A DNA stretch of 64,000 nucleotides from Candidatus Dojkabacteria bacterium (lineage in GTDB: Bacteria > Patescibacteriota > Dojkabacteria > SC72 > JAHDCA01), in assembly GCA_030583845.1 (NCBI GenBank), contig CP129478.1, forward strand, positions 779,686-843,685. Direction: 5' to 3'. Below are positions 8,176-40,262 of this stretch, one piece after another. The notes beneath the pieces were generated by a model. The model searched no databases and was not told the DNA's origin. It was given only the letters and a program-made list of their open reading frames with translations. The translations under genes were made by a program, and so were the position numbers. Each line of letters starts with the position of its first letter. Within the stretch, counting starts at the first letter, position 1.

Positions 8176-8787
8176 CTATAACTCCTCCGATTTCTTGTCT
8201 CTTCTTCGCCTCATAAAGATAAAAATCGCTGGTAGAAGGAGCAGAAGTAAACCACAAGAACTGACACTTCCTGCTACGAAGGTCGCTGTATCTATACCGA
8301 ATATAAGGCCATCGTCATTTTCCTCTCCACCGCCACCTCTGTTGTCACCGTCATCACTACCGCCATCGTCGTCATCGTCACTGTCAGGGTCATTCGGGTC
8401 ATTGTCCCTGCCGTCTGTGTCTTCCCCGCCATCACTGTCTCCATCGCCATCATCTGGATTGCTGCTTGAACCGCCGTTACCAGAGCCATTGCTGCTACCA
8501 CCCGACCCGCCATTCTCCTCTTCTTCTTCCTCACCACCGCTATCGCCTGGATCATCAGGTGGGTCATCGGGTGGCTCAGGATCTGGGAATTCTGAATTAT
8601 CGCCCCACGACTCACATCCTGGATCTGTGCCGAAGTCTATTGCACCATCGCCATCGTTGTCCATTCCGTCATTGCACTCCTCGAACCCGTAGATATATTG
8701 ATAAAATGTGGAAGCATAAGAGTGCTGAGCAGACAGAGCTAGGAGGAGCAAACAAAGGTAAATTGTGATCTTTCTTGCGAGATTCAT
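8176..8787 (-). CDS. Secreted Asp/Gly-rich acidic protein with a thrombospondin-type-3-like Ca-binding repeat and a C-terminal Cys-TM-RRRR anchor or sorting-signal-like tail
   Basis: A signal peptide MNLARKITIYLCLLLLALSAQHSYA is followed by CNDGMDNDGDGAIDFGTDPGC, a C-x-D-x-D-N-D-G-D-G-x-x-D...C motif. There is a ~120-aa D/G/S/E low-complexity region. The C-terminus is SVSSCGLLLLLLPAIFIFMRRRRDKKSEEL. The antisense ORF 8195..8692 is a low-complexity shadow. Confidence 0.5.
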   Translation of the reverse strand: MNLARKITIYLCLLLLALSAQHSYASTFYQYIYGFEECNDGMDNDGDGAIDFGTDPGCESWGDNSEFPDPEPPDDPPDDPGDSGGEEEEEENGGSGGSSNGSGNGGSSSNPDDGDGDSDGGEDTDGRDNDPNDPDSDDDDDGGSDDGDNRGGGGEENDDGLIFGIDTATFVAGSVSSCGLLLLLLPAIFIFMRRRRDKKSEEL

Positions 8788-8794
8788 CTTTCAA

Positions 8795-12742: not shown

Positions 12743-12745
12743 AAC

Positions 12746-13900
12746 CTACTCCCTTGGAGGGATTTTAATTTTCCTTCCAGCTTCGATATTATACGGAGGC
12801 TTAATCTTGTTTGCATTCGCCAGCTTTTTCCAGCCGATGTTGTTTCTTTTCGCTATTTCTTCTAGATTTTCGCCGCTCTTTATTGTGTAGGTATCCCATC
12901 TCATCTTAATCTCGTTTCGGTGGGCAATCCGAAGCCAGATAGCAGCCCCAACTGCGATGACCAAGGCCAATACACCCAGCTCTATCAAGGCATTCCTTGG
13001 TTGGGGTAGGAATAGGAGATACTTCGGCTCAGAGGATATAGATGTATTTGGCGCCTCTGAGTCCACTCCAACACTTGCTTCGCTGCTGTTGTCGTACTCA
13101 ACTATTGCGCTTGTTTTGATCAGGCCTCCCCACTCCGGTGGCTGTAGGTCAATATTAAATACACCGGTGTCACCACGAAGTATCGGATATTGACTGATTT
13201 CTTCATGGCTTCCAATACCCCAGAAATAGGCGGTTACAAGATGAAGCTTGGCGTCGATCGATACATTCCCATCGTTTCTGATCTCGGTTCGTGTGGTTAT
13301 CAGCGACCTGCTGGCCTGATTGGCTCGAAAAGAGGTTAGGCTTAATTTCCTGACCTGCTCACCCGGCACAGTTACTACCACTCTCAAGCCGGTTCTAAAT
13401 GATAAGCTCACCCCGGATCCACTTCCAGTGGGGTCTTTTTTCTCTTGTAACATTATGCACCCATTTTGTTCACCTACATCCGCTACCTCTGGCACCTCAA
13501 CGTTGAACCTTACACTTGTACTTGTGTGAGCAGCCAAGTCTAGCTCTTCGGCCTCAAGATTAATCCACCCTCCCACTTTATCTTTGCTGTCGAGATACTG
13601 CTCGCAAGCGAAAGAGCCGTCGGTGGATTTCTGAGAGTCAGTGGCATATAGAAGCACCGTCTTGTCTTGATCTGTGTTATTGATGACTAGGATCTCATCC
13701 TCTTCGCTTACACCAGGTGCGAGATTGTAAATAAAAATCGATTTGGTTCTCTCGTTATCTGGGTCTGGGTGAGCAGGCTTCAGTCCGATACCTTCATATT
13801 CAATGGCAGCGGCTGAAGAAGTGCTATATAAAGTGAAAAGAATCACACAAATTGACAGTTTTGCTAGCCTTGCTGGCGTAGCGAGTTTCTGTTTGAGCAT
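12746..13900 (-). CDS. Secreted/anchored protein with a C-terminal TM segment followed by a LysM domain
   Basis: It has a signal peptide, a ~290-aa ectodomain, a TM segment LIELGVLALVIAVGAAIWL, then YTIKSGENLEEIAKRNNIGWKKLANANKIKPPYNIEAGRKIKIP, which fits the LysM consensus. It starts 4 nt downstream of the giant gene. A resemblance to DUF916-type WxL-interacting surface proteins is only a guess. Confidence 0.55.
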   Translation of the reverse strand: MLKQKLATPARLAKLSICVILFTLYSTSSAAAIEYEGIGLKPAHPDPDNERTKSIFIYNLAPGVSEEDEILVINNTDQDKTVLLYATDSQKSTDGSFACEQYLDSKDKVGGWINLEAEELDLAAHTSTSVRFNVEVPEVADVGEQNGCIMLQEKKDPTGSGSGVSLSFRTGLRVVVTVPGEQVRKLSLTSFRANQASRSLITTRTEIRNDGNVSIDAKLHLVTAYFWGIGSHEEISQYPILRGDTGVFNIDLQPPEWGGLIKTSAIVEYDNSSEASVGVDSEAPNTSISSEPKYLLFLPQPRNALIELGVLALVIAVGAAIWLRIAHRNEIKMRWDTYTIKSGENLEEIAKRNNIGWKKLANANKIKPPYNIEAGRKIKIPPRE

Positions 13901-13927
13901 AGGTTTATATCCCGCAGAATCTAAGTT

Positions 13928-14605
13928 TTAGTTGCTAACTACAGACAGAACCATGTTGATATCGTAGTCTGAAGCGGCTGCTTGCTGTGCAGGAATATCT
14001 TGGTCTACATCGACACCTATTAATGCCCAATCACCGATATCGTCGGAGCCTGCAGCTGCAGTTAGGAGTGTGATACTGTCGGTAGTACCCTGAACAAACG
14101 AAGCGGCTGAGCCTTTAGTGATGTTGGTGGTAGTACAGCCTGAGCATGCACCTGCTGTTAATGTGCCAACCGACGCATCAACTGTCATCTGTCCACCAAC
14201 CGAGTCTGCATCACCACCATCTGTACAGCCACCACCCGATGAGTCGTTAAAATCGTAGTCAGAAGCTGCTCCATCCCATACTGCTGTTGCAGCTGATCCG
14301 GCGAGACTTGCTGACCATCCGTTATCCGCAGCGTCTGGGTTTGAGACATAGATTCTCTGAGATGCCGTACCGAAAGTTCCTGAGCTTGTCTGACAAGCAA
14401 ATGAGAATGTTGCAGTAGGAAATGCAACGCTTGGGGAACCAACTGTAACATATGATCCGTCAACAATATCAATCGCAAGCGTTCCTGCGTTAATTGTTTG
14501 GGTGAAGTTTGAGGTGTCTAGTGCGTATACTGATGCACCGAAGAAAGAAAGTGTAGATATAATAGTAGCTAATAGTAAAATTCCCTTGGCAGCTCGAGCT
14601 TTCAT
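13928..14605 (-). CDS. Small secreted protein, stand-alone paralog of the C-terminal domain of the 1315-aa protein
   Basis: After a signal peptide it aligns to the last ~190 aa of 8795..12742: DIVDGSYVTVGSPSVAFPTATFSFACQTSSGTFG vs DIVDSGGTTVSNPSIAFSIATASFACQTTTGTFG, and YDFNDSSGGGCTDGGDADS vs YDFNDSAGSPAGCGDGGDADS. Both end in SVVSN. Confidence 0.55.
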   Translation of the reverse strand: MKARAAKGILLLATIISTLSFFGASVYALDTSNFTQTINAGTLAIDIVDGSYVTVGSPSVAFPTATFSFACQTSSGTFGTASQRIYVSNPDAADNGWSASLAGSAATAVWDGAASDYDFNDSSGGGCTDGGDADSVGGQMTVDASVGTLTAGACSGCTTTNITKGSAASFVQGTTDSITLLTAAAGSDDIGDWALIGVDVDQDIPAQQAAASDYDINMVLSVVSN

Positions 14606-14778: not shown

Positions 14779-16674
14779 ATGGCAGAAATCACACCTAACG
14801 ACAAAATTCGTAATATCGCTATTATCGCCCACGTAGACCATGGGAAGACCACACTTATCGATGCATTTCTGAAGCAGAGCAATACTTTCCGTGAGAATCA
14901 AGAAGAGATGCAGCAGGAGCAAATCTTAGACTTCAATGAGCTCGAACGAGAGCGTGGTATCACTATTCAGGCTAAAAATATCGCCCTGCCTTACAAAGGC
15001 CATCTTATCAATATTATCGATACTCCAGGTCACGCTGACTTTGGTGGTGAAGTTGAGAGAACATTGAGCATGGCAGACGGTGCTGTGCTTCTAGTTGATG
15101 CACAGGAAGGTGTAATGCCACAGACTAGATTCGTATTGAAGCGAGCTTTGGAGCTTGGATTGAAGATAATCGTACTGGTTAACAAGATTGATAAGAAGCT
15201 GGCGGATCCTGCATCTACAGTCAAGAAAGTACAGGATCTGTTCTTGAGCCTTGTTACTGACATGAACCAGCTAGAATTCCCGGTGTATTATGCAATCGGC
15301 CGTGACGGCAAGGTTTTCAAAGAGCTTCCAGTAGAGAGAGGTGATGACCTAGCCAATGTTCCTGGTGACACGACTCCTCTCTTGGATGAAGTACTCGCAT
15401 ATATTCCGGCACCGTCTGGAGATATTAATGAGCCGTTCCAGATGCAGGTTTCATCCCTAGATTACGACCCACACAACGGTCGCTACCTTATTGGTCGCAT
15501 ATCGCATGGAAAAGTAAGCCTTGGCGATAGTATAAAAGCAGCACATCCCGAGCTTCCTGGCAAAGTTATCTCAAGCAAAGTAAAAATGCTCTCAGTCCGT
15601 AAAGGACTTGAGTATGCACAGGTAGATAAGGCTGGGGTAGGGGATATTGTCGCCATAGCTGGTCTAGATGATGTGCGCATCGGCAGCACACTATATGTAC
15701 AGGAGGGCACAGAGATCATGCCGGACATCAAGATATCACCTCCGTCACTCAAGATGAAATTCGAGGCAAACACCTCACCATTCCTCGGTAAAGAGGGTAA
15801 ATTCCCTAACCTGAAGCAGCTTCAAGCACGACTCGAGCACGAGAAGATGATCAATATCAGCCTTAAGATCGATAAGAACGACGACGGATCGTACTATGTA
15901 TCCGGTCGTGGAGAGCTTCACCTCGGAATCCTCGTAGAAACACTACGAAGAGAGGGCTATGAATTCCAGCTACGCAAGCCAGAGGTAATCATCACAGTTG
16001 TTGACGGCAAAAAGATGGAGCCAGAAGAGGAGCTATATGTTGAGGTACCCGAGGAGTACTTTAGCGTTGTCTCACAGATCGTAAATACTCGCAAAGGCAA
16101 TTTAATAAATGTAGAAAACGCCAACGGTCAGTCGAAGATGACATTCCATATCTTAGCCCGCAACTTGATCGGCCTAAGAAGGCAGCTCGCAACAGCAACA
16201 AAAGGCAACCTGGTAATCAGCAATACTTTCCACCAGCTAGTAGCTCTTGGTGGTGGCACAATCGAAGAGAGAAATGGTCGCCTCATCTCGAATGCCACAG
16301 GTACGTCATTGGCCTATGCTTTGAACTCTATCCAGGAGCGAGGTGAGCTATTAATCACACCAGCAACCGAAGTATATGAGGGAATGGTAATCGGAATCAG
16401 CAAGTATGAGAACGATATAAGCGTAAATCCAATGAAAGCTCGTGAGAAGAGCAATGTACGTCAGTCAACCGCAACTGTGACAGACGTCGCATTGAAGACT
16501 CCAATTCAGGTGACCTTGGAGTATGCGATCGGTATCTTGGCAGACGATGAGATACTTGAGGTTACACCTTTGAATTTGCGCATCCGCAAGAAATTCCTCA
16601 ATAAGACGGAGGAATATATGGCCACTAAGAAGAAGGGTAAGGGTGGAGTTGCTGCTTCTGAGGTTGAGGAGTAG
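14779..16674 (+). CDS. typA: Translational GTPase TypA/BipA
   Basis: The G domain AIIAHVDHGKTTL and DTPGHADF is present and the EF-G-like architecture is full length. Confidence 0.9.
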   Translation: MAEITPNDKIRNIAIIAHVDHGKTTLIDAFLKQSNTFRENQEEMQQEQILDFNELERERGITIQAKNIALPYKGHLINIIDTPGHADFGGEVERTLSMADGAVLLVDAQEGVMPQTRFVLKRALELGLKIIVLVNKIDKKLADPASTVKKVQDLFLSLVTDMNQLEFPVYYAIGRDGKVFKELPVERGDDLANVPGDTTPLLDEVLAYIPAPSGDINEPFQMQVSSLDYDPHNGRYLIGRISHGKVSLGDSIKAAHPELPGKVISSKVKMLSVRKGLEYAQVDKAGVGDIVAIAGLDDVRIGSTLYVQEGTEIMPDIKISPPSLKMKFEANTSPFLGKEGKFPNLKQLQARLEHEKMINISLKIDKNDDGSYYVSGRGELHLGILVETLRREGYEFQLRKPEVIITVVDGKKMEPEEELYVEVPEEYFSVVSQIVNTRKGNLINVENANGQSKMTFHILARNLIGLRRQLATATKGNLVISNTFHQLVALGGGTIEERNGRLISNATGTSLAYALNSIQERGELLITPATEVYEGMVIGISKYENDISVNPMKAREKSNVRQSTATVTDVALKTPIQVTLEYAIGILADDEILEVTPLNLRIRKKFLNKTEEYMATKKKGKGGVAASEVEE

Positions 16675-16770
16675 TAGCTTCTTCCTGCACAGTTTCGCAT
16701 TTAATGAAAATTTCATGAATTTATATCTAGTTTTGCTTGAAGCGATCTGTAGATCGTATAGAATCAAGCT

Positions 16771-17392: not shown

Positions 17393-17809
17393 TTAGTTAG
17401 GATGCTGTTCATTGAACCACTTCCCAAACTTTGTCCAAACCGAAATATCCTCAGTCTCATCAAAGGAAGAGATCTCTTCACTGTTGCATAAAGCAATACT
17501 CTTGCCATCAGCCCTGAAGGTAACTATCTGATCAATTGGGATACCTTCGCCAGCAGGCTCTGTAAGAATTGTACCCTCTTTGATCGTCTTGAAAATCTTC
17601 ATTTTGTCACCATCTTTGTAAGCAAGTACATCCATGAATGTTATGGATCGGTCTGCTTTATCACTCATTAAGTTTAGAAAATCCTGTGGAGAAAACCAAT
17701 CGGTTACGTAGTGCATAAATGGTCCTGGGAAGCCTTTTAGAGCATGGATATTCCAGCCGGTATCTGTTACTACGACAGCTGATTTCGCGACTTCAAATGC
17801 TTGTTCCAC
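17393..17809 (-). CDS. Ham1/ITPase-like (non-canonical purine NTP pyrophosphatase) C-terminal portion; possibly a frameshifted gene together with ORF 17824..18171
   Basis: VVVTDTGWNIHALKGFPGPFMHYV resembles the Ham1 block (L/V)[22 protein letters not shown]. The GTG start sits only ~20 aa upstream of the motif, so the N-terminal lysine/TGN motif region is missing from this frame. The upstream ORF is in a different frame. Confidence 0.35.
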   Translation of the reverse strand: MEQAFEVAKSAVVVTDTGWNIHALKGFPGPFMHYVTDWFSPQDFLNLMSDKADRSITFMDVLAYKDGDKMKIFKTIKEGTILTEPAGEGIPIDQIVTFRADGKSIALCNSEEISSFDETEDISVWTKFGKWFNEQHPN

Positions 17810-18382
17810 TTTAGAGATAGCAACTACTTCGATAGGCTTGCTTGTTCGTCATCAGTGAGGTCTTGAAAGTTCACTATTTTGTTTAGTATTACCGGATAGC
17901 TTGTCTCGACTACACCTAAAAGCTTCTCAACGTCATTATTTTTACCACCATCTGCATCTGTATAGGAATAGAAACCTGATTCGACTGCTGTGTCTTTAGT
18001 TAATTGCTGTATGTATGTGTTACGCTTCTTTGCAATAAGCACAGAGACAAGCTCATCTCTCTGTTGCAAACGAGTCAAGGCTCCAGCACTTGGGTAGATA
18101 GTGGTGTCGTTTCGGCAGTCTGACGTAAGTAAAGCTGAGGCTAAAGTTACATATACTGAAATCATACACAAGGGTTATTCTTTCAATCGATACGAGCTGC
18201 AAGATGACGGAACGGTCAACTATGCACTCACTGCGTTCGTATCATAGTTGTACTCCTGTCGAAAGCCACTCATTTGCCTCTACGAGTCTACATTCGTGGA
18301 TCTCCAGTTGCGGGGTACCCCGACATCTTGTTCCATCTCTACTAAGTACACGACTTCCTGTCGGGTCTCTAAGTTAGTAGCA

Positions 18383-18459: not shown

Positions 18460-18639
18460 ACAAAAATAACGAGCTATTTTCTTTAGGAGCACGGAAAGTA
18501 TATCAAATGTCTAAGCCACAAACAACATCGGGCAGTCCTGCCTGTGTAATCCTATAGTTGAAATACCACGGCTGTCCTATTACAACATCCCATAGAGAGT
18601 GGTACAATGAAAGAGATAAATTTTCATTAACTCTCTATT

Positions 18640-19363
18640 ATGGCTTCAAAAAATAAGAAGTCTAGTCAGGGAAGTAGCGCATCTGCGCAAGGTTCGCAGA
18701 GTGCTTCAGCTTCTCAATCGCAGGGTGTAGAAGACACTGGCCGATCAGTCCTGAGTGTTATGGGCTGGATCATTGCTGGTGTATTTCTGCTACTATTCGC
18801 ATCTTTCGTTTTCTTTGAGAATGATGAGAGCGATGAGCTGAGCCAGGCTACACAGGATAAATATGATGCAGTACAGGAGCTGTATGATACTGTGCGACCT
18901 GCTCTTTCACAGGAAGGACAGGAGGATCTGGATATCGTTATGGAGTATATCGATGAAGATCCAAACAGGCTTAATTTGGAGAAGGATGAGCATCCAGCAT
19001 ATGTTGTTGAGGCATATGATGCAGTAAAGTCCGAGATTGAGGAATCAGTCGGTTCAGGACAAGAGCCAGAAGAGGGAGTACAGGTAGGTGATGAGTACAC
19101 AGTTGTTGGTGTGCTTGAGGAGACAGAAGAGGACACAGTCTATGGTCCGCTTGTTCAAAGTTCAAGACGAAACAACTGGTGCAGACCTTTACTTTGTATT
19201 TAATGGTGATCAGCTAAACGAGATCGAAGATCAATCGATGCTCGGTGAGAGGGTCGAAATTGACATCGTCATAACCGATGTTGAGGGTGGTAAAGTCGCA
19301 TACAATGTGACTGATGGCCCATCATTGGTTGATGATGGCTCAGACGAAGAGTCAGAGGAGTAG
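18640..19363 (+). CDS. Acidic membrane-anchored protein, apparently split by a frameshift near 19140 (ORFs 18640..19203 and 19088..19363)
   Basis: An N-terminal S/Q-rich segment and a TM helix (GWIIAGVFLLLFASFVFF) are followed by an acidic tail. The second ORF continues the same D/E-rich composition (KVQDETTGADLYFVFNGDQLNEIED...DDGSDEESEE) in another frame. Confidence 0.35.
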
Positions 19364-19399
19364 TTTTTAAGAGCACTTTGCTGAACTGATGTAAGTGCA

Positions 19400-19440
19400 G
19401 GGGCGGTGTGTTTTGCAAAACACACCGCCCCTTTTGTTAT
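19400..19440 (+). terminator. Rho-independent terminator hairpin
   Basis: The stem GGGGCGGTGTGTTTTG/CAAAACACACCGCCCC is followed by TTTTGTTATTT. Confidence 0.65.
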
Positions 19441-19469
19441 TTCGCTCGGCATCATATACTTGGAGCCGT

Positions 19470-19800
19470 GGGAAACAGAAAGTTTGTTAAAAATAATGAA
19501 AGCTTTAGATGCGTGAATTGTGGCGTTGATGTGCCAGTTCACCCCAGCAGCTCTCGCGATCATTGTAACCAATGTCTTTATTCTCTCCATGTGGACATCA
19601 ATCCAGGCGATAGAGCAAACCCGTGCAAAGGGATCTTGAAGCCAATAGCTGTGCTCCAAAGCAATAATCGGCAGCAGATCGAATACGAATGTGAGAAATG
19701 CGGTGCTACCGTTAGAAATATCGTAGCGCCTGATGATGATATGAACCGACTGATCGAGGTGTCGGTCCAGCCTTGGGAAGGCAGCACGGCCTCAAAGTAG
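19470..19800 (+). CDS. RNHCP-domain zinc-ribbon protein
   Basis: RKFVKNNESFRCVNCGVDV...SSRDHCNQCLYSLHVD matches the RNHCP family pattern, and a second Cys pair EYECEKCGAT follows. The start is uncertain: the ORF is open from 19408 and a GTG/TTG near 19461-19470 is likely. Confidence 0.5.
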
Positions 19801-19816: not shown

Positions 19817-20137
19817 TTATGCAGAAAGTCTTTTAATAGTCTCTACATAGTTCTGCTTTGGCTGTAGGCCGATCATTTTCTCTACCAGCTGACCATCTTT
19901 GAAGAACATAACCGTTGGGATGCTCATGACCTGGTTTGCCTGGGCTGTTTGAGGATTTTCGTCGACATTCATTTTGACTACTTTCGCTTTACCTTTCATT
20001 TCCTCCGCTACTTCTTCAAGAATCGGAGAAAGCATCACGCAAGGGCCACACCAAGGAGCCCAAAGGTCTATTACAACAACGCCTTTTTCATTAAGAACTT
20101 CGGCCTGAAATGTTGCATCTGTTACTTCATTAACCAT
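19817..20137 (-). CDS. trxA: Thioredoxin
   Basis: The active site is WAPWCGPC. The start is taken at the internal ATG (MVNEVTDATF...), which gives a ~106-aa protein. That ATG lies inside a TTAATGAA motif copy. Confidence 0.9.
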   Translation of the reverse strand: MVNEVTDATFQAEVLNEKGVVVIDLWAPWCGPCVMLSPILEEVAEEMKGKAKVVKMNVDENPQTAQANQVMSIPTVMFFKDGQLVEKMIGLQPKQNYVETIKRLSA

Positions 20138-20287
20138 AGTTAAAAATTGTGGATAGTTTAGTCGCCCTATGATAGGACAAGAGTAGGGTAGGGTCAATCA
20201 AAAGTGATTGGCTGGTGTATAGCTAATTTCAGGCGTTTTTAATATAATTACGCCGTAGTAGAACGGTTTTAATGCTATCCTGCTTTT

Positions 20288-21397
20288 ATGGAAAGATTAA
20301 CAATTAATGAAAATGAATATCAGCTTGTAGTGGATCGTGCCGTTGAGGTGTTGGCAAGCGGTGGAATTGTCGTGTACCCAACCGAAACATGCTACGGAAT
20401 TGGCGTTGACGCCACAAATCAGGCGGCTGTCGACCGTTTAATGAAGTATAAGTCGCGTAGAGAAGGGAAGCCGTTGTCTGTGGCGGTTACTGGGCGCGAG
20501 ATGGCTGCAAAATATGTTGAGATAAATGATCTTGCTGATAATCTATATGAAAACTATCTGCCCGGGCCAATAACAGTCGTATCTAAGGGCTTGGGACAGG
20601 TTGCTGCTGGGGTTGAGTCAGAATACGGTACTCTCGGGATCCGCGTCCCGGATTACAAGCTAATACTTGATATCGTTGAGAAATTTGGAAAGCCTGTGAC
20701 CTCTACCTCTGCCAACGTCTCATATAAGCCTCGTCCTTATGATATCGATACATTATTGAAGAATTGCTCGGAGCAGCAGAAAGGCTATCTCGATCTGATT
20801 CTTGATGCAGGTGTATTGCCGAAAAATGAGCCCTCAACAGTTGTTGATACAACTTTAAATAGCTTAAATGTCATGCGAGAGGGCACATTGAAATTTAATG
20901 AAGATATAAGCAACGATAAATTAATCTTGCAGGCTGAGAGTGATAGTGCAGATGAGACCGCCAGGTTTGGAAGCCTTGTGATGCTGAAGCATATAGACGC
21001 AATGCTAGAACAGCCATTTATTCTTGCATTAAAAGGTGATCTTGGGGCAGGGAAGACACAGTTTGTGAAGGGTCTCGCCCAGCAGTTAAAAATTAATGAA
21101 AATGTATCTTCGCCGACCTATACAATCATTGATGAGTACAAATATGAGGTTGGTGAGCATAGAAAAGGGCTGCTCGCACACATGGACACATGGAGGGTAG
21201 ATGGGGCAGAGGAATTCGCACGAACAGGTCTTGAGGGGTACCTTAAGCCTGGCAATGTCATAGCTATCGAGTGGGCAGACAAATTTTATCCAGAGCTACT
21301 TGAAGCTGCAAAGAATTCGAAGGCTAAAGTCTTGAAGGTAAGCTTCGAGCATATCTCCGAGAGTAAGCGGAAAATAGAGGTTTATTCAGAAATTTAA
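20288..21397 (+). CDS. tsaC/tsaE: Fused threonylcarbamoyl-AMP synthase TsaC (YrdC/Sua5 domain) + TsaE (YjeE P-loop ATPase)
   Basis: The N-terminal half carries VVYPTETCYGIGVDATNQAAVDRL...STSAN, the YrdC fold. The C-terminal half carries LKGDLGAGKTQFVKGLA...SPTYTIIDEY...WRVDGAEE, the YjeE motifs. It is a single uninterrupted ORF. Confidence 0.8.
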   Translation: MERLTINENEYQLVVDRAVEVLASGGIVVYPTETCYGIGVDATNQAAVDRLMKYKSRREGKPLSVAVTGREMAAKYVEINDLADNLYENYLPGPITVVSKGLGQVAAGVESEYGTLGIRVPDYKLILDIVEKFGKPVTSTSANVSYKPRPYDIDTLLKNCSEQQKGYLDLILDAGVLPKNEPSTVVDTTLNSLNVMREGTLKFNEDISNDKLILQAESDSADETARFGSLVMLKHIDAMLEQPFILALKGDLGAGKTQFVKGLAQQLKINENVSSPTYTIIDEYKYEVGEHRKGLLAHMDTWRVDGAEEFARTGLEGYLKPGNVIAIEWADKFYPELLEAAKNSKAKVLKVSFEHISESKRKIEVYSEI

Positions 21398-22515
21398 TGA
21401 AATCTATGAGCAAGAGCGCGTTAAAAATTAATGAAAATAGTAGCGAGCCTTTAATCCTAGCTGTAGATACAAGTTGCGATGAGACCTCTGTCGCTATTCT
21501 TCGTGGCAGAAATGTAATAACAAGCATTGTTTCGTCACAAACGGAGCTCCATAAAAAGTGGGGCGGAATCGTGCCACATGTGGCACGTCGTGCGCATGAA
21601 GAGAATCTCCCAAAGGCATATGCTGAGGCTATGAAGCGTGCGGGCATAGATGATCCAAAGCAGTTCGATGCTGTTGCTGTCACCAAGGGTCCAGGGCTGG
21701 CGGTCGATCTGGAGGTTGGGATTGATTTCATTAAGCAGTTAGCAATTAATGAAAATATCCCTCTTATAGAAGTGAACCACATGGAAGGTCATTTTCTCTC
21801 ATCACTCGCGTTGAACTCGGAGGGGCACGGCTCGATAGAAGATTTTAATGAAGATGAATATTTCCCTGCTCTTGGGCTGCTTGTTTCGGGAAAGCATACC
21901 GAGATAGTCTACTCAGAGAAAATCGGGCAGTATAAAAAAATTGGCTGGACTTTGGATGATGCGGCTGGTGAGGCGTTTGATAAATTTGGGAGGATGATGG
22001 GTTTCGGCTACCCTGCTGGTCCTGTAGTGTCAGAGTTTGCAAAGAAAGGTAAGCCGAATGACCTGATTGAGCTTCCAATTCCGCTTGAAAAAAGCAAAGA
22101 TCTGAATTTCAGCTATTCAGGTCTAAAAACAGCCTCGCTTTACCGAATAAACGAGCTGCGTGAGCAGGGTTTGAAGGATAAGGATTTTGCAAATGACTTC
22201 TGTTATGCATTTGTGCAGGTTATTGTTGACTCTATAGTACTCAAATTAGAAAAGGCTCTGCAAGGGTATCCCGAGGCCAAATCTGTCTTCGCTGGAGGCG
22301 GCGTGCTCAAAAATGAAAAGCTTTCGCGTAGCCTAAGCAATATGGTCAGGAGTTATGGGGTGAAATTTAATCTTCCTGATGATAAATATCGCACCGATAA
22401 TGCCGTGATGATAGGGATTGTTGCATATTATAAATATCTACGTGGAGAGATCTCAACTACAACCGAACAGAAGTCTAGGTTAGATAGAAATCCTAGACTT
22501 GAAATAGGCAATTAA
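21397..22515 (+). CDS. tsaD: tRNA N6-adenosine threonylcarbamoyltransferase TsaD (Kae1/YgjD)
   Basis: AVDTSCDETSVAIL and ...VNHMEGH match the family. Its ATG overlaps the upstream stop (TAATG). The N-terminal ~18-aa extension contains the recurrent AATTAATGAAAAT motif. Confidence 0.85.
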   Translation: MKSMSKSALKINENSSEPLILAVDTSCDETSVAILRGRNVITSIVSSQTELHKKWGGIVPHVARRAHEENLPKAYAEAMKRAGIDDPKQFDAVAVTKGPGLAVDLEVGIDFIKQLAINENIPLIEVNHMEGHFLSSLALNSEGHGSIEDFNEDEYFPALGLLVSGKHTEIVYSEKIGQYKKIGWTLDDAAGEAFDKFGRMMGFGYPAGPVVSEFAKKGKPNDLIELPIPLEKSKDLNFSYSGLKTASLYRINELREQGLKDKDFANDFCYAFVQVIVDSIVLKLEKALQGYPEAKSVFAGGGVLKNEKLSRSLSNMVRSYGVKFNLPDDKYRTDNAVMIGIVAYYKYLRGEISTTTEQKSRLDRNPRLEIGN

Positions 22516-22769
22516 TGAAACTTCATTAACCCCCTGTTGGAACACTCATCTTCTACTTTTTTATTTCGATTGTCAATTTCTCTAAATGAAAACCGATGGT
22601 GAGGCTGCTTTCTGTACAAAAATTGTGTATATTTAAACAACGACGCACAATGTGTTGTACCGAACGGCTAAACGGCTGCTTGATGATAAGTAACACCCCT
22701 TCCTGTAATATGTCCACATTCTGTTTAGGAATATGCCCATATAATGCTTAATATTTTAGTTTTTTTGTT

Positions 22770-24440
22770 ATGGCAAGCAAAGTTAAGACACCAAAATATA
22801 TATTTGTTTCTGGAGGAGTAATCTCTGGGATTGGTAAAGGCATCGCCGCATCATCAATCGCATTCTTAATGAAATCGTACGGCTACAAGATAACGATGAT
22901 TAAGATGGATCCGTATCTAAATGTCGACGCTGGTACTATGAATCCGCTTGAGCACGGCGAAACTTTTGTACTAGAGGATGGTTACGAAACCGATATGGAT
23001 ATAGGCCATTATGAGCGCTTTACAGGAGAGCTATTTAATGAAAAGAGCTCTATGACTGCCGGTAGAGTGTTAAAAAGACTCTTAGAAGATGAAAGATCGA
23101 TGGAATATAAAGGCAGGTGCGTCGAATTTGATACGCATGTGCCACTTGAGGTGGTCAAATGGGTCGAAGATGTGCAGAAAACCAATCAATCTGACATAAC
23201 TGTGATTGAGATCGGCGCGACAGTTGGCGAGCTTGGCCAAAGAATCTACCTCGAAGCCAATCGCATCATGAAGGTTTGGTTTCCAAATGATGTAATTCAT
23301 GTACATGTCTCATATCTTCCAATCCCGAAAAATCTCGGCGAGATGAAGAGCAAGCCCGTCCAGCTTTCAGTGCAGCTGCTCAATGGCGCCGGAATTAATC
23401 CTGATTTCATAATTGCACGTTCTGAGCTTCCAATTGACGATATCAGACGGGAGAAGCTTAGCTTCAAGTGTTATGTGCCAAAAGATAACGTCATATCTGC
23501 ACCTGACATCGAAAATATCTATGAGGTGCCATTGAACTTTGAGAAAGATGAGCTCGGCCGAAAGCTTCTCGAGAAATTCGGCCTACAGGCCAAGAGAAAT
23601 GGCGTCTTCGAAGAGTGGAAAGAGAAATTTGCAAAATTATCAGATGCCAAAGAGAAAGTTACCATCGGGATCGTCGGAAAATATTACAAGAGTGGCGATT
23701 TCGACCTGAAGGACTCATATGTATCTGTAATTGAGGCAATTCGACATGCAGCATGGGCTCAAAACCTACTACCAGAGATCAAATGGTTTGTTGCAGACGA
23801 TTTTGAAAATGACGAAGCCATGCTTGAAGAATTAAAAAGTGTTGACGGAATAATTGTGCCGCAGGGTTGGGGCAGTAGAGGTGGTGAGGGGAAGATTAAA
23901 GCAGTTCAGGTTGCCCGTGAGAGCAAGATCCCCTATCTCGGTCTATGCTATGGGATGCAGATGGCTGTGATTGAGTACGCAAGGAATGTTGCCGGAGTTA
24001 GCGGTGCAAATTCTGAAGAGATCGATGAGAAAGCTGCCGATCCTGTAATCCACATAATGGAAGAGCAGAAAAAGCATATCGCTGAAGGTAACTATGGTGG
24101 CACGATAAGACTCGGCGCATGGCCGTGCAAAGTCGAGAAAGGATCGCTACTGGAGGAGATGTATAAAAAGTACTCAAACGGGCTATTTAATGAATTGCCC
24201 GTCGTCCAAGAAAGGCATCGCCACAGATATGAATTTAACAATGAATACCGAGAGGCACTGAGCAAGGCTGGCCTAAAGATCACAGGCACTAGCCCGGATG
24301 ATAGGCTGGTTGAGGCAATTGAGCTTGATAAAAAGGATCATCCATTTTTCGTCGCGACACAATATCATCCTGAGCTGAAGTCGCAGTTTATAATGCCGCA
24401 TCCGTTGTTTATGGGCTTTATAGCTGCAGCTAAGAAATAG
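22770..24440 (+). CDS. pyrG: CTP synthase
   Basis: The N-terminal synthase domain has KYIFVSGGVISGIGKGIAASS. The C-terminal GATase domain has LGLCYGMQMAVIEYARNV and HRHRYEFN. Confidence 0.9.
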   Translation: MASKVKTPKYIFVSGGVISGIGKGIAASSIAFLMKSYGYKITMIKMDPYLNVDAGTMNPLEHGETFVLEDGYETDMDIGHYERFTGELFNEKSSMTAGRVLKRLLEDERSMEYKGRCVEFDTHVPLEVVKWVEDVQKTNQSDITVIEIGATVGELGQRIYLEANRIMKVWFPNDVIHVHVSYLPIPKNLGEMKSKPVQLSVQLLNGAGINPDFIIARSELPIDDIRREKLSFKCYVPKDNVISAPDIENIYEVPLNFEKDELGRKLLEKFGLQAKRNGVFEEWKEKFAKLSDAKEKVTIGIVGKYYKSGDFDLKDSYVSVIEAIRHAAWAQNLLPEIKWFVADDFENDEAMLEELKSVDGIIVPQGWGSRGGEGKIKAVQVARESKIPYLGLCYGMQMAVIEYARNVAGVSGANSEEIDEKAADPVIHIMEEQKKHIAEGNYGGTIRLGAWPCKVEKGSLLEEMYKKYSNGLFNELPVVQERHRHRYEFNNEYREALSKAGLKITGTSPDDRLVEAIELDKKDHPFFVATQYHPELKSQFIMPHPLFMGFIAAAKK

Positions 24441-24471: not shown

Positions 24472-25746
24472 CTACCAGCCGAGCTCGATCTCAGTGAGCC
24501 TGTTATATTTGGCTAGTCTTTCGCCACGATCCGGACCGCCAAACTTTGTCTGGCCTGACATTGTGCCGATTGCAAGGTCAGCAATCAGGTCGTCGTTTGT
24601 CTCGCCACCACGGTGAGACATCACTGCTCCCCACCCTACTGATTTGGCCATCTTAATCGCTTCAATCGTCTCTGTAATCGTGCCGATCTGATTTATCTTC
24701 ACAAGTACTGCGTTTGCAGCATCGGCTGTAATCGCTTTGCGGATACGTTCAACATTGGTTGTAAGGAGATCGTCACCAACAATCTGCATGGTGCTACCAA
24801 ACTGATCCACCAGCCTGACCCATGTATCCCAGTCCTCTTCAAAGAGTGTGTCTTCAATACTCCAGATCGGATACTGCCTGAACCAGTCGGCCTGCTTTTC
24901 AAGCCACTCTTCAGATGACAGGATCAACCCCTCACGCTTCAAGTTATATTTACCAGTCTCGCGGTCATAAAACTCTGATGCCGCCATGTCCAACGCAAGC
25001 ACTATCTCTTCCCCGACCTTATATCCTGCCAATTCGACTCCCTCGAGCATAATCTCGAAAGCCTCAGTATTCGAGCGAATCTCGTGTGGTGCGAAAGCTC
25101 CTTCAAAGCCCACCGTGGCCGAATAGCCTCGCTTAAGTAGGGCATCGTGGGTAGCTTTGAAAATCTCTGCTCCGGCGCGCACTACATCTGAATACTTTGG
25201 GAATCTCTCTTTCTTTGGGACAACCATATACTCCTGGAAATCAGTTGCCCAGTTCCCGTGCTTTCCGCCCTCCATGAGCAGCACCATCGACTGCGGCATC
25301 TCTATCTTAAATTTGCTCTCATACTCGTCGCCGAAATACGCTTTTGCAAAGTACTGATAGAGCGGCTGTTTGGTAGATATAGCCATCGCGCGTGCGAAAG
25401 CCATAGATACTGAGAGAATGCTGTTGCCACCGAGCTTGCTTTTGTTCAAAGTGCCATCAAGCAGGATAAGGAAGTTATCTAGATCTGCTTGTGTGTCGTA
25501 GTTCATGCCAACGATTGCGGTTTTAATCTCTGTCTCGACCTTGGAGACGGCATTTAATACCCCATCGCCGAAGTAGCGAGCCTTGTCATCGTCGCGCATC
25601 TCAAGCACCTCTGTAGTGCCCGTTGAGGCTCCAGAAGGTACTGCACCTTTTGCCTTGGTACCGTCTTCTAATGTAATCTCGGTCTCGATGGTCGGGATGC
25701 CTCGGGAGTCTAGGATTTCGCGGGCTCGCAGGTTGGATATATTCAT
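24472..25746 (-). CDS. eno: Enolase
   Basis: ILDSRGIPTIE, SGASTG and SHRGGETNDDLIADLAIG match enolase. The start is taken at the internal ATG (MNISNLRAREILDSRG); the ORF is open to 25785. Confidence 0.9.
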   Translation of the reverse strand: MNISNLRAREILDSRGIPTIETEITLEDGTKAKGAVPSGASTGTTEVLEMRDDDKARYFGDGVLNAVSKVETEIKTAIVGMNYDTQADLDNFLILLDGTLNKSKLGGNSILSVSMAFARAMAISTKQPLYQYFAKAYFGDEYESKFKIEMPQSMVLLMEGGKHGNWATDFQEYMVVPKKERFPKYSDVVRAGAEIFKATHDALLKRGYSATVGFEGAFAPHEIRSNTEAFEIMLEGVELAGYKVGEEIVLALDMAASEFYDRETGKYNLKREGLILSSEEWLEKQADWFRQYPIWSIEDTLFEEDWDTWVRLVDQFGSTMQIVGDDLLTTNVERIRKAITADAANAVLVKINQIGTITETIEAIKMAKSVGWGAVMSHRGGETNDDLIADLAIGTMSGQTKFGGPDRGERLAKYNRLTEIELGW

Positions 25747-25767
25747 GTCTTGTTTGATAAGGTTAGT

Positions 25768-25809
25768 CCAAGTCGCACTTTGCAAGTGCGACTTCGCGAA
25801 GGCGGAGTT
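25768..25809. repeat. 42-nt palindromic repeat, copy 1 (identical to 41553..41594)
   Basis: The sequence is CCAAGTCGCACTTTGCAAGTGCGACTTCGCGAAGGCGGAGTT. It contains a 10-bp stem/5-nt loop hairpin plus a CTTCGCGAAG palindrome, and it sits between the SPFH gene 3' end and the eno start. Confidence 0.7.
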
Positions 25810-28303: not shown

Positions 28304-30986
28304 TTAACCTTTTCTTAACCTCTTAGGCGAGTAGTTGTACAGCAAATCCCTCCAGCCCTGTACTGCGGCATAAAATACAGGGAAGGCGAAGAGTATTAGT
28401 GCCATGCTAGAAAGCAGCCCAAATATGATTGTAAATGCAAGTGGCTCCCAGAATGGCTCCGTAAGTGCTAGCGGTACTAAGCCACACACCGTCGTTAAAG
28501 TTGTGGTCAGTATAGGTCGAGTTCGAAGCCGTACAGCCTCAGAGATTGCTTCGGTTATGTCTTTGCCCTCTCGCCTGCGCGCATTTGCGTATTCAATCAA
28601 CATGATTGTGTTATTCACTACAATACCGATCAATCCTGTGAGACCGATCACTACAAAGAAGCTCATCGGGTTACCAGTTAAGTACAACCCCAAGAATAGT
28701 CCAGGGAAGCAGAAAGGTATTGCCAAAAGGATCAGCAGCGGCTGTGAAAAGGAATTGAACTGAAGCACTAGCAAGCCATACATTACTATTAGCGCAATTA
28801 TTCCTGCCAATGCCACGGATGCGAACGACTCGGCATTATCACTCTCCTGTCCAGAATCAAATCCAACGGTGACCCCTGGGTACCTACTGTTCAGAAGATT
28901 TTGATCAAATTCCGCTTCGATTGCATTTTGCAACTCAATAATTGTCGCGCTGTCACTACCATCACTGAACTTAACCCTGATGGTTGCGTACCTGTCGCCA
29001 TTTTTACGGCTCACTTCTAGCAGGGATTCACTCTTTACATCTGCAACTTCAACATCGTTATCCAGCTTAACGGTTGGTATATATCGTGCGATGTCATCCG
29101 TGGCATTCTCAAGCATCGTCTGATCTTCAGAATAAATCTGCATAGCAAAAGGGAACTGTGTTTCAGGTGGACCTGCTGATACGACCGCTGTGTTAATAAT
29201 AGCACCATCAAAATCCTCGGTAGCGACATTTAATTCCTTTGCAATCTGTGTAGAGGTTATTTCTCTCTCAGTAATGCCGTTCAGGTGAACCATTAATTGG
29301 GCACTCCTGCTGTTTCCAACGAGATATGTTACCTCCTCAATCTCCTCCCGGCTCTTCTGCAGTAGAATATTTTCAACCTGAATGCTAAGTTTTCTAGCGC
29401 TCTCAATAGCTGTTGGTTGGTCAAATGATATAGAGACAGTAATCTCTTCAGAATCCTTAGCAGGTGCAAAGTATGAGAACCCGATTAAGCTGGAGAAGTA
29501 TATGCCCACTCCAATTAAAACAATAGACATCACAATGGCAAATAGTTTGTAGAGCCTATTTCTTAGCGCAAATTTGACATACGACTCGAGTATCTCCCCA
29601 AAGCGGAGAATCTTGCTAGGAACATATTCAAATACCCTCTCGAAGATTGATCTGTTATCCGCATTACCGTTGCGATCCTTCAAGAAATGCTTCGATATGA
29701 ATGGCAGGATAGTTAAAGCAATTAGCAGCGAAAGTAGCAGTGAAATGATAACTGTAATTGGTAAGATCTTGATAAACTCTCCAAGTACCCCTTCGATAAA
29801 TACAAGCGGCACAAATACAAGCACTGTAGTTAATGTCCCTGAGATATCCGCGACTCCAATGTCCCCGATTGCCTTTCTTACGGCCTCTACTCCTTTATGG
29901 CCTTTCCTCTTATAGTAATCGATAGCTTCAACTACTACAGTCCCATCATCTACAAATAGGCCAAGCACAAGCACAAGCGAGAATAGTGAAATTGTATTGA
30001 GGGAAAGACCAAAAAGTGTGAATGTAAGGAATACCGCCCCAAGCGTCATCGGTATGAAAAGTGCGAGTATGAGTGCCGATCGTAGATCTATGAATAGCAG
30101 TAGAATAATAAAGATTGTCACTATTGCGGCCACAGCATTTTCCTCTAAGGATGAGATCTGTGTCTCGAGCTGCTCTGCAGGATCAGATGTGTATGAGACA
30201 TCAATATCTTTGAGCGCCTCGCTTTCGAGTGCCTTCTCCACGCTGCCTCCTCACGGATTCGGAGAAATCAAGAGTGCCGATGTCTTGGTTTTTCTTCATT
30301 ATTCCGATAACTATTGTGTCAAACGCCCGTTTTTCAAATGCCCGACTACCATTACCTTCTACAGTAATGAGTCTTGAGAACGAGTTTTGCACGACAACCT
30401 CTCTGTTCTGGCCGAAATCGTAGGTCTCTACAAACTGCTCTTTCACATTTGCGTGTTGCACCATGTCGTTTCTCTCGATTTCTGTTGCAAGTAACTCACC
30501 TCTTTCCTGAAGCTCTTCCAATCCAAGCTCATCTGAATATATTGAGATCAAGATGTCATTTTCACCATCAACAAGCCCAGGCTCTGGGATTGATATCTGT
30601 GACTCGTTGGGCAAATTTAGCGACTCCACGCGCTCTGCCACAAGCTCTTCAACTTTGTATGGATCCGAATTATCTTGATCTAGCGTGATGACCACAGTTG
30701 AAACATTTGCACTAGAGCTACTGTTAATCTCTTCTACCTCCTCTAGCTCAAGCACTGTATCGTAGATTGGGATTGTAATGTCGGCTTCAGTCTTGGCTGG
30801 GTCGCCTGATAGATATGGTGTAACAACGACAATGTACGGTATGTTAATTACCGGAAAGCCCTCTTTTTTCAAAGTATTGGTGTAGGTGTAGAAACCCATT
30901 GCCAGGAGGGAGAGGGTGATAAGTATGGTAAACCTGCTTCTATTGACAAAGAAGAGGCTTACTTTTGTAATAATATTGTCTTTCAT
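28304..30986 (-). pseudogene. RND (AcrB/HAE-type) efflux transporter split by one frameshift near 30235 (ORFs 30201..30986 and 28304..30241)
   Basis: The N-terminal ORF has the RND start (TM1, then PVINIPYIVVVTPYLSGDPAKTEADITIPIYDTV). The downstream ORF continues with ...LFIPMTLGAVF...GLSLNTISLFSLVLVLGLFVDDGTVVVEAI and the C-terminal TM bundle. The two ORFs overlap in different frames. Confidence 0.7.
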
Positions 30987-31252
30987 CTGTTTTATATAGA
31001 ATTAAGATAGCCGTTATACAGTACGAGTAACCTGGGGATTATACTATTTAACTCGATGAGAGGCACGTGGTTGCAGGTAGGCGATTTGAGTGACTTTAAG
31101 GCTTTATTAATGTATGATCGTTAAGTACTTCATTAAATTTTAACGAGGGCGTGTAATGATAAGAAAAATGCGTAACTCGCTAGATGAAGTCTCCTTTGGC
31201 GACCTCGCCTAGCAAATTTCCCAAACAACAATAATTTCATTAAGTAGATCTC

Positions 31253-32369: not shown

Positions 32370-33035
32370 ATGAAATATCTGGTCATATCAGACACACATC
32401 TAACGCACAGGTTCTATCCCGATAAATATGAGAAACTCCGAATTATTATTCAAGCCGCAGACAGGGTGATTATCAATGGCGACTTCTGGGATGGCTATTT
32501 TACGACCTTCGACAAGTTCTTAAAGTCAGAATGGAAAACACTTTTTCCACTTCTCAAAGAGAAGAAGGCAGTATATATCACTGGAAACCATGATGACACC
32601 CAGCTTTATCAGTTCAAGGATAATTGTGGATTATTTGCTGATCTTGTAGCCGAAAATTTTAAATTCAAGTCAGGAGACAAGCAGTTTTATGTCGAGCATG
32701 GGCATAGGATATTGCCAGAGATGAGTCGTAGATTTATGCCGCTTAGGAAGTCTCGCTTATTTTTAATGATATGGAACCTACCATTTAATATTGGTGAGTA
32801 TATAAGCCTCAAGCTTTTCCGTACGCCAGCACCAGTTAGCGATATAAATCAGAAGCTATTTGAGCACTTTGGGAAAGACCGAAAAGGGAATCACTACACA
32901 ATAGTGAGCCATTCACATAAGCAGGAATTTAATGAAAAGGCTGGCGTAATCAACACCGGATACTTTAGGTGGGGATTGGCACAATACTTAACTGTTGAAG
33001 ATGAAAAAGTAGTTTTGCACTCGGAAAATTACTAA
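32370..33035 (+). CDS. Calcineurin-like metallophosphoesterase
   Basis: ISDTHL, GDFWDG, GNHD and EHGH are present. The start is chosen at MKYLVISDTHL; the ORF is open from 32253 and overlaps rsgA. Confidence 0.65.
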   Translation: MKYLVISDTHLTHRFYPDKYEKLRIIIQAADRVIINGDFWDGYFTTFDKFLKSEWKTLFPLLKEKKAVYITGNHDDTQLYQFKDNCGLFADLVAENFKFKSGDKQFYVEHGHRILPEMSRRFMPLRKSRLFLMIWNLPFNIGEYISLKLFRTPAPVSDINQKLFEHFGKDRKGNHYTIVSHSHKQEFNEKAGVINTGYFRWGLAQYLTVEDEKVVLHSENY

Positions 33036-40242: not shown

Positions 40243-40262
40243 CTTTAATTGCTACACCAAAA

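Follow-up and report, generated by a model that had tools for sequence, protein, structure and literature searches.

Chi is the top word of the Escherichia coli genome, and highly iterated palindrome 1 (HIP1; GCGATCGC) of the cyanobacteria is hugely over-represented, its function still being debated. Closer to the case described here are the uptake sequences, which combine over-represented exact cores with A/T-rich flanks, are scarce in new segments and in constrained coding DNA, and accumulate through molecular drive (PMC7811141). The uptake signal sequence (USS) of Haemophilus and other Pasteurellaceae has a 9-bp core, AAGTGCGGT, within AT-rich flanks and is spread relatively evenly over the H. 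influenzae genome (PMC7811141). The DNA uptake sequence (DUS) of the Neisseriaceae is a 10-12-mer read by the minor pilin ComP, and uptake words of this kind occur as lineage dialects with a pilin receptor (PMC3868556). Here, we describe a hyper-abundant 8-mer, TTAATGAA, in a 64-kb stretch of DNA (hereafter, the window) from a metagenome-assembled genome (1.04 Mb) of an uncultivated member of Candidatus Dojkabacteria (WS6), a lineage of the Candidate Phyla Radiation (CPR; also called Patescibacteria). We find that, in one Candidatus Dojkabacteria clade, selection or drive at the level of DNA acts on TTAATGAA as an exact word. Among its possible functions, we tentatively rank first that of an uptake-sequence-like self-recognition word.

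The window holds 31 copies of TTAATGAA (19 on the plus and 12 on the minus strand), about eightfold over expectation. Dinucleotide shuffles of the window gave a mean of 3.79 copies and a maximum of 10, an order-3 Markov model predicts 3.94, and the word ranks first among the 8-mers of the window by both count and z-score (13.6). Outside a dense cluster around tsaD (hereafter, the hot cluster), 15 copies in 60 kb still amount to about four times the expectation. A longer form, the 13-mer AATTAATGAAAAT, has four exact copies, all on the plus strand (20302, 21091, 21426, and 21744) and all encoding L-x-I-N-E-N within tsaC-tsaE and tsaD, whereas dinucleotide shuffles give none; two copies share the 19-mer GTTAAAAATTAATGAAAAT (21085 and 21420). 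The initial annotation, made by a model from the letters alone, had anticipated most of this picture: more than 25 copies of the 8-mer where about 5 were expected, four INEN-encoding 13-mers beyond chance (its coordinates were off by 0-1 nt), and the identical 19-mer in two of them.

The excess is confined to the exact word. The 24 one-mismatch variants sum to 66 observed against 77 expected (added by hand), each at or near chance, and all eight positions are equally specific, with variants at every position at background. Therefore, recognition appears to be all-or-none. The flanks are weak (A-T-TTAATGAA-A-W, that is, A at -2, T at -1, A at +8, and A or T at +9), and beyond about 2 nt on each side their information is at background. 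A dispersed repeat, such as a remnant of a repetitive extragenic palindrome (REP), a miniature inverted-repeat transposable element (MITE), or an insertion sequence, was considered and rejected: the copies share no extended flanks, and only two have the 19-mer in common.

The same word is enriched in relatives of the window genome. Four related genomes were compared over five loci (L007 and L011 come from one sample), together with two out-group loci and a set of distant genomes:

L007: TsaD 79% identical in amino acids, about 71% nucleotide identity over trxA-pyrG; 15 copies against 1.2 expected
L008: TsaD 80% identical, about 71% nucleotide identity over trxA-pyrG; 6 copies against 0.8 expected
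L011: about 67% nucleotide identity over rsgA-aspS; 7 copies against 1.5 expected
L012: about 67% nucleotide identity over rsgA-aspS; 8 copies against 1.6 expected
L014: about 67% nucleotide identity over rsgA-aspS; 12 copies against 1.7 expected
L009: TsaD 64% identical; 2 copies against 1.2 expected, not enriched
L010: TsaD 62% identical; no copy against 0.4 expected, not enriched
L001-L006: distant CPR and other genomes; 0-4 copies against 0.04-2.2 expected, none enriched

The enrichment in the relatives is 5- to 12-fold, and TTAATGAA is the top or joint-top 8-mer in L007, L008, and L014. Since the word is enriched in genomes at 67-71% nucleotide identity and is not enriched in L009, L010, or the other CPR genomes, it belongs to one clade: it is common to the relatives and not to the distant genomes. 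A scan of metagenome contigs with GTTAAAAATTAATGAAAAT returned at least 120 unrelated, mostly AT-rich matches, none of them clearly of the clade.

Individual sites are partly kept and partly turning over. L007 has 10 copies in the same 4.1 kb (from the trxA-tsaCE spacer to pyrG), 8 of which lie at orthologous positions of the window (p=5e-8). Seen from the window, 8 of the 16 sites of the hot cluster are kept in L007, against 7.8% of all 8-mers (p=1e-5). Conservation this far above background implies purifying selection or drive. Outside the cluster, two of nine window sites (in trxB and upstream of recA) are common to L012 or L014, and the exact copy within the recA-upstream tandem is kept in all four genomes compared. 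Sites arise and vanish by single point changes, as with TTCATTAA, TTCGTTAA, and TTCTTTAA, which are found in different genomes, and replacement sites can lie nearby: the recJ copies are 9 nt apart, and the rsgA-upstream copies are 4 nt apart.

Homologous recombination also leaves a trace in these genomes. L011 and L012 are 99.7% identical, and 34 of their 63 differences fall in two tracts (8549-8677 and 17721-18006), in both of which L012 equals the more distant L014. This pattern indicates that short-tract homologous recombination takes place in the clade. One of the tracts spans a motif site, where L012 and L014 have TTCATTAA and L011 has TTCGTTAA; this single event is evidence that recombination occurs, and nothing more. 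The window also contains a 6.4-kb segment (8176-14605) that carries no copy of TTAATGAA and is missing at the matching junction of L007, although this is too little DNA for a test of depletion. In that segment, which L007 lacks between the ABC/FtsX genes and typA, are the genes of a very acidic secreted protein rich in D, G, and E, a protein of 1315 aa without a Pfam match, a LysM/WxL-interacting protein, and a secreted protein of 225 aa. In L011-L014, the ABC/FtsX pair itself (3281-6122 in the window) adjoins rsgA, which shows the window genome to be rearranged compared with these relatives.

The genes that carry or adjoin the hot cluster, and the copies of the word, are as follows.

14779-16674: typA
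19817-20134, minus strand: trxA
20288-21397: tsaC-tsaE fusion
21397-22515: tsaD (product WKZ30921.1)
22770-24440: pyrG
24472-25785, minus strand: eno
20087-24194, both strands: hot cluster of TTAATGAA in trxA, tsaC-tsaE, tsaD, and pyrG
6453-6460, minus strand: sense copy in an FtsX-like permease gene, frame TTA-ATG-AA (LMK)
16701-16719, plus strand: imperfect inverted pair TTAATGAA-AAT-TTCATGAA, 27 nt past the typA stop, one arm with one mismatch
18623-18630, minus strand: intergenic copy ending 9 nt upstream of the ATG at 18640
20087-20094, minus strand: sense copy in trxA, CTT-AAT-GAA (LNE)
20126-20133, minus strand: copy at the trxA start, ATG GTT AAT GAA (MVNE)
20302-20314, plus strand: 13-mer AATTAATGAAAAT at the TsaC N-terminus (TINEN)
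20438-20445, plus strand: copy in tsaC, frame TTA-ATG-AA, at the conserved RLMKY
20895-20902, plus strand: copy at the TsaC-TsaE linker (KFNED)
21085-21103, plus strand: 19-mer GTTAAAAATTAATGAAAAT, which holds the 13-mer, in the TsaE domain (LKINEN)
21394-21401, plus strand: copy over the tsaC-tsaE stop (TAA) and the tsaD start (ATG)
21420-21438, plus strand: second identical 19-mer, in a TsaD N-terminal extension found in this genome only (LKINENS)
21727-21734, minus strand: antisense copy in tsaD, TTC ATT AAG (DFIKQ), kept in L007
21744-21756, plus strand: 13-mer in a variable part of tsaD (AINEN); L009 has ATT AAT GAG
21845-21852, plus strand: copy in a variable tsaD loop (DFNED)
22512-22529, both strands: exact inverted pair TTAATGAA-AC-TTCATTAA over the tsaD stop codon
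22866-22873, plus strand: copy in pyrG (FLMKS); out-groups FILKS or YLLKA
23035-23042, plus strand: copy in pyrG (LFNEK), window only
24187-24194, plus strand: copy in pyrG (LFNEL), common to the window, L007, and L008; out-groups LFSDL or LFADL
31129-31136, minus strand: intergenic, in the divergent region upstream of rsgA; one mismatch in the relatives (TTCACTAA)
31236-31243, minus strand: intergenic copy ending 9 nt upstream of the rsgA GTG; the relatives' copy is offset by 4 nt
32929-32936, plus strand: copy near the 3' end of a metallophosphoesterase gene (EFNEK)
36152-36170, both strands: imperfect inverted pair TTAATGAT-AAT-TTCATTAA at the histidine kinase stop, one arm with one mismatch
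36905-36912, plus strand: copy in trxB (ELMN), kept in L011, L012, and L014
41606-41624, minus strand: tandem TTCATTAG-AAA-TTCATTAA, just upstream of a conserved TTGACC (-35-like) hexamer before recA
45304-45311, plus strand: copy in recJ (EFNED); relatives have TTAACGAA
45605-45612, minus strand: antisense copy in recJ; the relatives' copy is 9 nt off, where the window has TTCATTGA (local turnover)
48271-48278, plus strand: intergenic copy
52858-52865, plus strand: antisense copy in the gene at 52001-53311
56161-56168, minus strand: antisense copy in a GH3 gene
60187-60194, plus strand: copy over the stop codon of the gene at 58247-60190

Besides these, the window contains a response regulator and histidine kinase pair, trxB, rmuC, recA, recX, recJ, aspS, and gltX. 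Most of the positions first proposed for the word were right to within 0-3 nt, as was the presence of the tandem upstream of recA. A copy placed at 23025 lies at 23035, one at 52878 lies at 52858, and that at 45874 is a one-mismatch copy, TTAATGAG; the copies at 6453, 20087, 20438, 21727, 22866, 36905, and 56161 had been missed. The three inverted pairs that had been described are all present, of which that at 22512-22529 is exact and those at 36152-36170 and 16701-16719 have one mismatched arm each.

Of the 31 copies, 20 lie inside genes, 16 in sense and 4 in antisense orientation, and these genes are many and unrelated. Shuffling of synonymous codons predicts 3.1 sense and 1.05 antisense copies, and shuffling of codon order predicts 1.8 and 1.33, respectively. 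The excess over the codon null is 5.1-fold for sense and 3.8-fold for antisense copies; since coding constraint by itself predicts a sense bias, the excess is similar in both orientations. Codon usage, codon-pair, or peptide selection is ruled out by these shuffles, and the excess of AATGAA seen in counts of NE dipeptides consists of the motif copies themselves.

The codons and residues at the sites agree with this. The word employs the minor glutamate codon GAA (525 against 924 GAG) and the rarest leucine codon, TTA. At the conserved RLMKY, leucine is TTA in the window and L007, CTA in L008, and CTT in L009 and L010; KFNE is TTT AAT GAA in the clade and TTT AAC GAG in L009, and the glutamate of AINE is GAA in the clade and GAG in the out-group L009. 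Residues change as well. All three clade members have LFNEL in pyrG where the out-groups have LFSDL or LFADL, which indicates that the clade altered amino acids to create TTAATGAA, and FILK or YLLK of the out-groups likewise became FLMK. The TsaC N-terminal INE is found in the window and L007 only (L008 has VND; the out-groups have IKK or LEK), whereas KINE at the 19-mer of the TsaE domain is kept as far as L009, which has the word there too. Alignments of TsaD and TsaC-TsaE place most copies in N-terminal extensions, the domain linker, and variable loops, and throughout the window many copies sit at N-termini, linkers, stop codons, and variable loops, so that the word overrides codon and amino-acid preference at tolerated coding positions. 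The initial annotation had proposed selection on the DNA word, and the codon-preserving nulls, the GAA and TTA usage, and the out-group orthologs support this well. It had added that conservation of the INEN or FNE residues in distant orthologs would instead point to the protein. This holds only in part: LKINE and KFNE are conserved, only out to a 70%-identical ortholog, and both N-terminal INEN sites, AINEN, DFNE, and the pyrG sites are specific to the clade.

Non-coding DNA is richer still. It makes up 6.4 kb (about 10%) of the window, and 11 copies (10 by a flank-padded count) lie in or straddle it, against 0.6-1.3 expected. Three copies overlap stop codons (T-TAA-TGA-A). Intergenic copies are oriented 5 plus and 6 minus, the hot cluster 12 plus and 4 minus, and the 31-50 kb region 4 plus and 5 minus in the window and 3 plus and 9 minus in L014. 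Given that GC skew is positive over nearly the entire window, the word has no consistent polarity on a uniform skew and occurs in both orientations; the orientation symmetry that the initial annotation had proposed to examine is thus present. Close inverted pairs of the form TTAATGAA-N2/3-TTCATTAA occur in the window, and everted pairs are also seen in relatives; where the window has its pair after typA, L007 has an everted TTCATGAA-TT-TTAATGAA, and the pair at the tsaD stop is not present at the same position in L007 and L008.

As a promoter element, the word was rejected by eye in upstream regions, where TATAAT-like -10 boxes stand apart from it. The conserved promoter-proximal copies (recA and rsgA) leave room for a regulatory side-role. 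The block upstream of recA (41606-41700) is strongly conserved in four genomes, in the order motif tandem, TTTTTGACCCTTAA, ATCTAAAATTTATAGTAATTCCTATA. The true recA start is probably downstream of the listed TTG at 41640, which falls inside this promoter-like block.

A word that is exact, clade-specific, selected at the DNA level, orientation-free, richest in the least constrained DNA, and partly kept while partly turning over carries the footprint of an uptake sequence, and we rank that reading first for this reason. The initial annotation had likewise suggested an uptake-signal-like element; exactness, both orientations, tolerated sites, the intergenic excess, close pairs, lineage specificity, and conservation side with it, and clumping and the lack of competence genes in the window do not. 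We would picture the following. A sequence-specific DNA-recognising component would read TTAATGAA, most likely the uptake machinery (the type IV pilus/ComEC route), which is widespread in the CPR. Fragments from self or kin that carry the word would be taken up, and hence recombined, more often, such that point mutations making the word would spread and those breaking it would be purged, a molecular drive as described for the Haemophilus USS and Neisseria DUS. Copies would build up where they are tolerated (non-coding DNA, gene ends, linkers, variable residues, and conserved residues with a synonymous option), and dense patches such as trxA-pyrG may be exchanged preferentially and so maintained. 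The setting is plausible: ComEC is found in 86% of CPR genomes, in which pili, DprA, and competence systems are widespread (PMC6744442), and natural transformation via ComEC has been demonstrated in Saccharibacteria (PMC10633639).

The likeness to the USS extends to a short exact core with weak A/T-rich flanks, both orientations, many intragenic copies at tolerated positions with peptides bent to fit, positions common to related species with turnover by point mutation, and an insert of apparently lineage-specific origin that has no copy (6.4 kb, not enough DNA for a test). In density, too, the two words agree to the order of magnitude, with 0.25-0.9 copies per kb here and 1,465 cores in H. influenzae (PMC7811141). 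In contrast to the USS, TTAATGAA is an unrelated 8-bp sequence from a different phylum (CPR) with far less information, its excess is 5- to 8-fold rather than orders of magnitude, it is clumped rather than even, and the uptake bias known for the USS is here only proposed. With the DUS it shares restriction to related species, frequent intergenic, closely spaced inverted pairs at gene ends, and a type IV pilus uptake route that is plausible in CPR (PMC6744442, PMC10633639). Unlike in the DUS, the pairs are too A/T-rich for terminators, and the window encodes no ComP-like receptor.

Several observations weigh against the uptake reading. Sixteen of the 31 copies crowd into 4.2 kb (20087-24194), where 5000 random placements gave at most 11, and stretches of 6.5, 10.2, and 6.9 kb (about 23 kb together), which take in the segment at 8176-14605, are free of copies; the word therefore lacks the even spacing of uptake sequences. 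A terminator scan made no call for the inverted pairs, whose folds are weak and without T-runs. There is no excess of one-off copies, unlike in N. meningitidis, which has 682 one-off alongside 1,474 perfect DUS (PMC3868556). An 8-bp word that is all A/T but for one G, at a 5- to 8-fold excess, would separate self from foreign DNA far worse than a 9-12-mer USS or DUS. The 64-kb window was found to contain neither a pilin gene or pilin N-terminal motif nor comEC, comEA, or dprA; restriction genes and methyltransferase genes, the latter of which the initial annotation had proposed to look for together with competence genes, were likewise not found there. A DNA-binding regulator, too, would explain the close pairs and the conserved copy beside the -35-like hexamer of recA. 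The sampling of the clade is small (about 128 kb in total), and we infer, rather than observe, both the recognition of TTAATGAA by uptake machinery and the biased uptake. We found no paper that joins uptake sequences with CPR/Patescibacteria or reports an uptake sequence preference in the CPR, and, among the literature matches listed for bare TTAATGAA, none concerned a bacterial genomic motif. That the word is a genuine uptake or self-recognition sequence of the Dojkabacteria clade, which would be the first in the CPR, is possible, and we hold it with some doubt. If genuine, it would be, as far as we know, the first uptake word iterated through a genome that is not from the Pasteurellaceae or Neisseriaceae.

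The strongest competing explanation, which we consider rather unlikely although well worth weighing, is that TTAATGAA is the site of an abundant chromosomal DNA-binding protein (nucleoid-associated, chromosome-organising, or a global regulator). On this view, the many single sites would be bound weakly and paired or clustered sites cooperatively, with trxA-pyrG as a nucleation or landmark region. Strong clumping would follow naturally from such binding, as would the recurrence of the hot cluster in L007 at eight orthologous sites, the close inverted and everted pairs of several genomes, and the copy before the recA TTGACC hexamer, kept in four genomes, with another just upstream of rsgA; the exact-word specificity itself implies a protein reader. 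However, 20 of the 31 copies are intragenic, built by codon choice or amino-acid change in unrelated genes, and sites outside the cluster turn over quickly. Operators are normally degenerate, yet the one-off variants show no excess, and the word displays neither the degenerate dyad nor the fixed spacing nor the upstream bias of an operator set. A single rigid dimer would not accept both inverted and everted pairs with 2-3 nt spacers. Among the genes of the window, none stands out as encoding a suitable DNA-binding protein, and the Fur, Zur, Rex, ArgR, cre, CodY, Spo0A, and DnaA boxes offer no convincing match that we know of. Altogether, a binding protein better explains the hot cluster, the close pairs, and the recA copy, and poorly explains the recoded single copies, the all-or-none specificity, and the mixed geometries.

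An improbable alternative is neutral or selfish spread without a reader, through a context-dependent mutation or repair bias (for example, deamination of TTAACGAA to TTAATGAA) or short-patch templated copying. Several polymorphisms are indeed C/T at word position 5 (TTAA[C/T]GAA), and one member of the identical 19-mer pair lies in an insertion unique to this genome and could be a templated copy. Under such spread, however, one would not expect eight equally specific positions with all variants at background, nor cluster sites conserved far above background; moreover, TTAACGAA forms no large reservoir (1 copy), and the other copies have no common flanks past about 2 nt on each side.

Very unlikely, in our judgment, is a leading-strand-rich polar signal such as Chi (RecBCD/AddAB) or the FtsK-orienting polar sequences (KOPS) and SpoIIIE recognition sequences of FtsK/SpoIIIE. 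Like Chi in E. coli, TTAATGAA is an exact 8-mer and the top word, and, like the octamers Chi, KOPS, and the architecture-imparting sequences in general, it is mainly intragenic and lineage-specific; recA, recX, recJ, and rmuC lie in the window, and the raw counts of 19 plus and 12 minus lean to one strand. Against this, orientation flips by region despite the positive GC skew, so that the copies are not co-oriented with replication, the intergenic copies are split 5 to 6, and the sense bias in genes equals the null expectation. Close inverted pairs make no sense for such a signal, no addAB or recBCD was found in the window, and intergenic enrichment and an A/T-rich rather than G-rich word set it further apart from these octamers. 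HIP1 resembles TTAATGAA as an 8-bp DNA-level word over-represented in coding and non-coding DNA of one lineage, but it is a GC-rich palindrome tied to a methyltransferase site, whereas TTAATGAA is asymmetric.

Still harder to credit is a cause in the protein or in translation, in which [FILV]-N-E and L-M-K peptides or runs of ANN codons are selected, one version being autoregulation of tsaC, tsaE, and tsaD that depends on the tRNA modification N6-threonylcarbamoyladenosine (t6A) through AAA-ATT-AAT-GAA-AAT. ANN codons need t6A-modified tRNAs, the four ANN-rich 13-mers lie in genes of the t6A pathway, 12 of the 20 coding copies read xTT-AAT-GAA, and LKINE and KFNE persist in the 70%-identical ortholog. 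Nevertheless, codon-preserving shuffles fall 4- to 5-fold short, a third of the copies fall in non-coding DNA or on gene boundaries, antisense copies are also enriched, and trxA, pyrG, recJ, and trxB carry copies too; most sites are at variable residues, and out-groups use other codons. As an explanation of the overall excess, this cause is largely refuted.

Least credible of all is that the inverted pairs are intrinsic terminators and the single copies their decayed halves, since, although three pairs lie at or just past the stops of typA, tsaD, and the histidine kinase gene and had been called terminator-like in the initial annotation, their 46-nt folds have AT-only stems without T-runs (-10.2 kcal/mol with a 7-bp A+T-rich stem at the tsaD stop, which alone marginally beats shuffles, -7.0, and only -1.2 kcal/mol after typA), no terminator was called, terminator hairpins of the Neisseria type are thus lacking, everted pairs exist, and 26 of the 31 copies are unpaired.

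The window has other features of its own. The 15-mer CCCCGCTAACCTATA forms three intergenic inverted pairs (36552-36662, 40200-40242, and 51883-51992) whose spacers measure about 13-80 nt. At 40195-40250, the hairpin folds at -43.7 kcal/mol (z = -12). GTTAGCGG has 11 copies against 0.6 expected, so that partial copies of the CCCCGCTAACCTATA element exist. Among the four relatives searched, CCCCGCTAACCTATA is not in L008, L009, or L010 and has a 2-mismatch match only in L007. It looks like a genome-specific REP/MITE-like palindromic element. Another word, TGGAGTAT, has 14 copies against 2.4 expected (z = 7.5), dispersed over 3978-60553 (10 plus and 4 minus), and is not enriched in the clade relatives. 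The aspS gene (48851-50733) is split into two open reading frames (ORFs) of 228 and 391 aa where relatives have a single 747-aa gene, and an AcrB-like transporter (28304-30986) is split or truncated; such cases come down to frameshifts, to pseudogenes, or to indels of the assembly.

Between the histidine kinase gene and trxB, a conserved promoter-like stretch (36265-36350) with a Shine-Dalgarno-like sequence (GGGTAACGGACTACACTGATAAT...GTCAGGGAGGGCTAAATGTTC) is common to L011-L014 and perhaps represents a small ORF missed in annotation. Past rmuC, the intergenic region (38924-39027) is made up of imperfect tandem repeats of about 30 nt (containing CTAAAGCTACGGACTACA). On the plus strand at 19399-19432, a strong terminator-like hairpin (15-bp stem with 9 GC pairs, then a T-run) lies inside a weak minus-strand ORF (19231-19659; TTG start, no Pfam match). 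That ORF is probably not a gene, and the hairpin probably terminates the upstream plus-strand gene at 18640-19203. The known RNA families in the window are limited to five tRNAs, none of which overlaps a copy of TTAATGAA.

CPR/Patescibacteria presumably rely on DNA and nucleotides from outside, and at least some are naturally transformable. If the uptake reading of TTAATGAA is true, ultra-small nucleotide-scavenging episymbionts would pick out kin DNA in pilus/ComEC uptake, with protein sequences reshaped in the process, and a lineage-specific word with an uptake-like population-genetic footprint would offer a concrete handle on Dojkabacteria transformation or on a pilin- or ComEA-like reader. 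If TTAATGAA is instead the site of a chromosome-organising protein, a DNA-protein system would be shaping codon and amino-acid choice in a minimal genome. Either way, TTAATGAA is a useful genomic marker of the clade.

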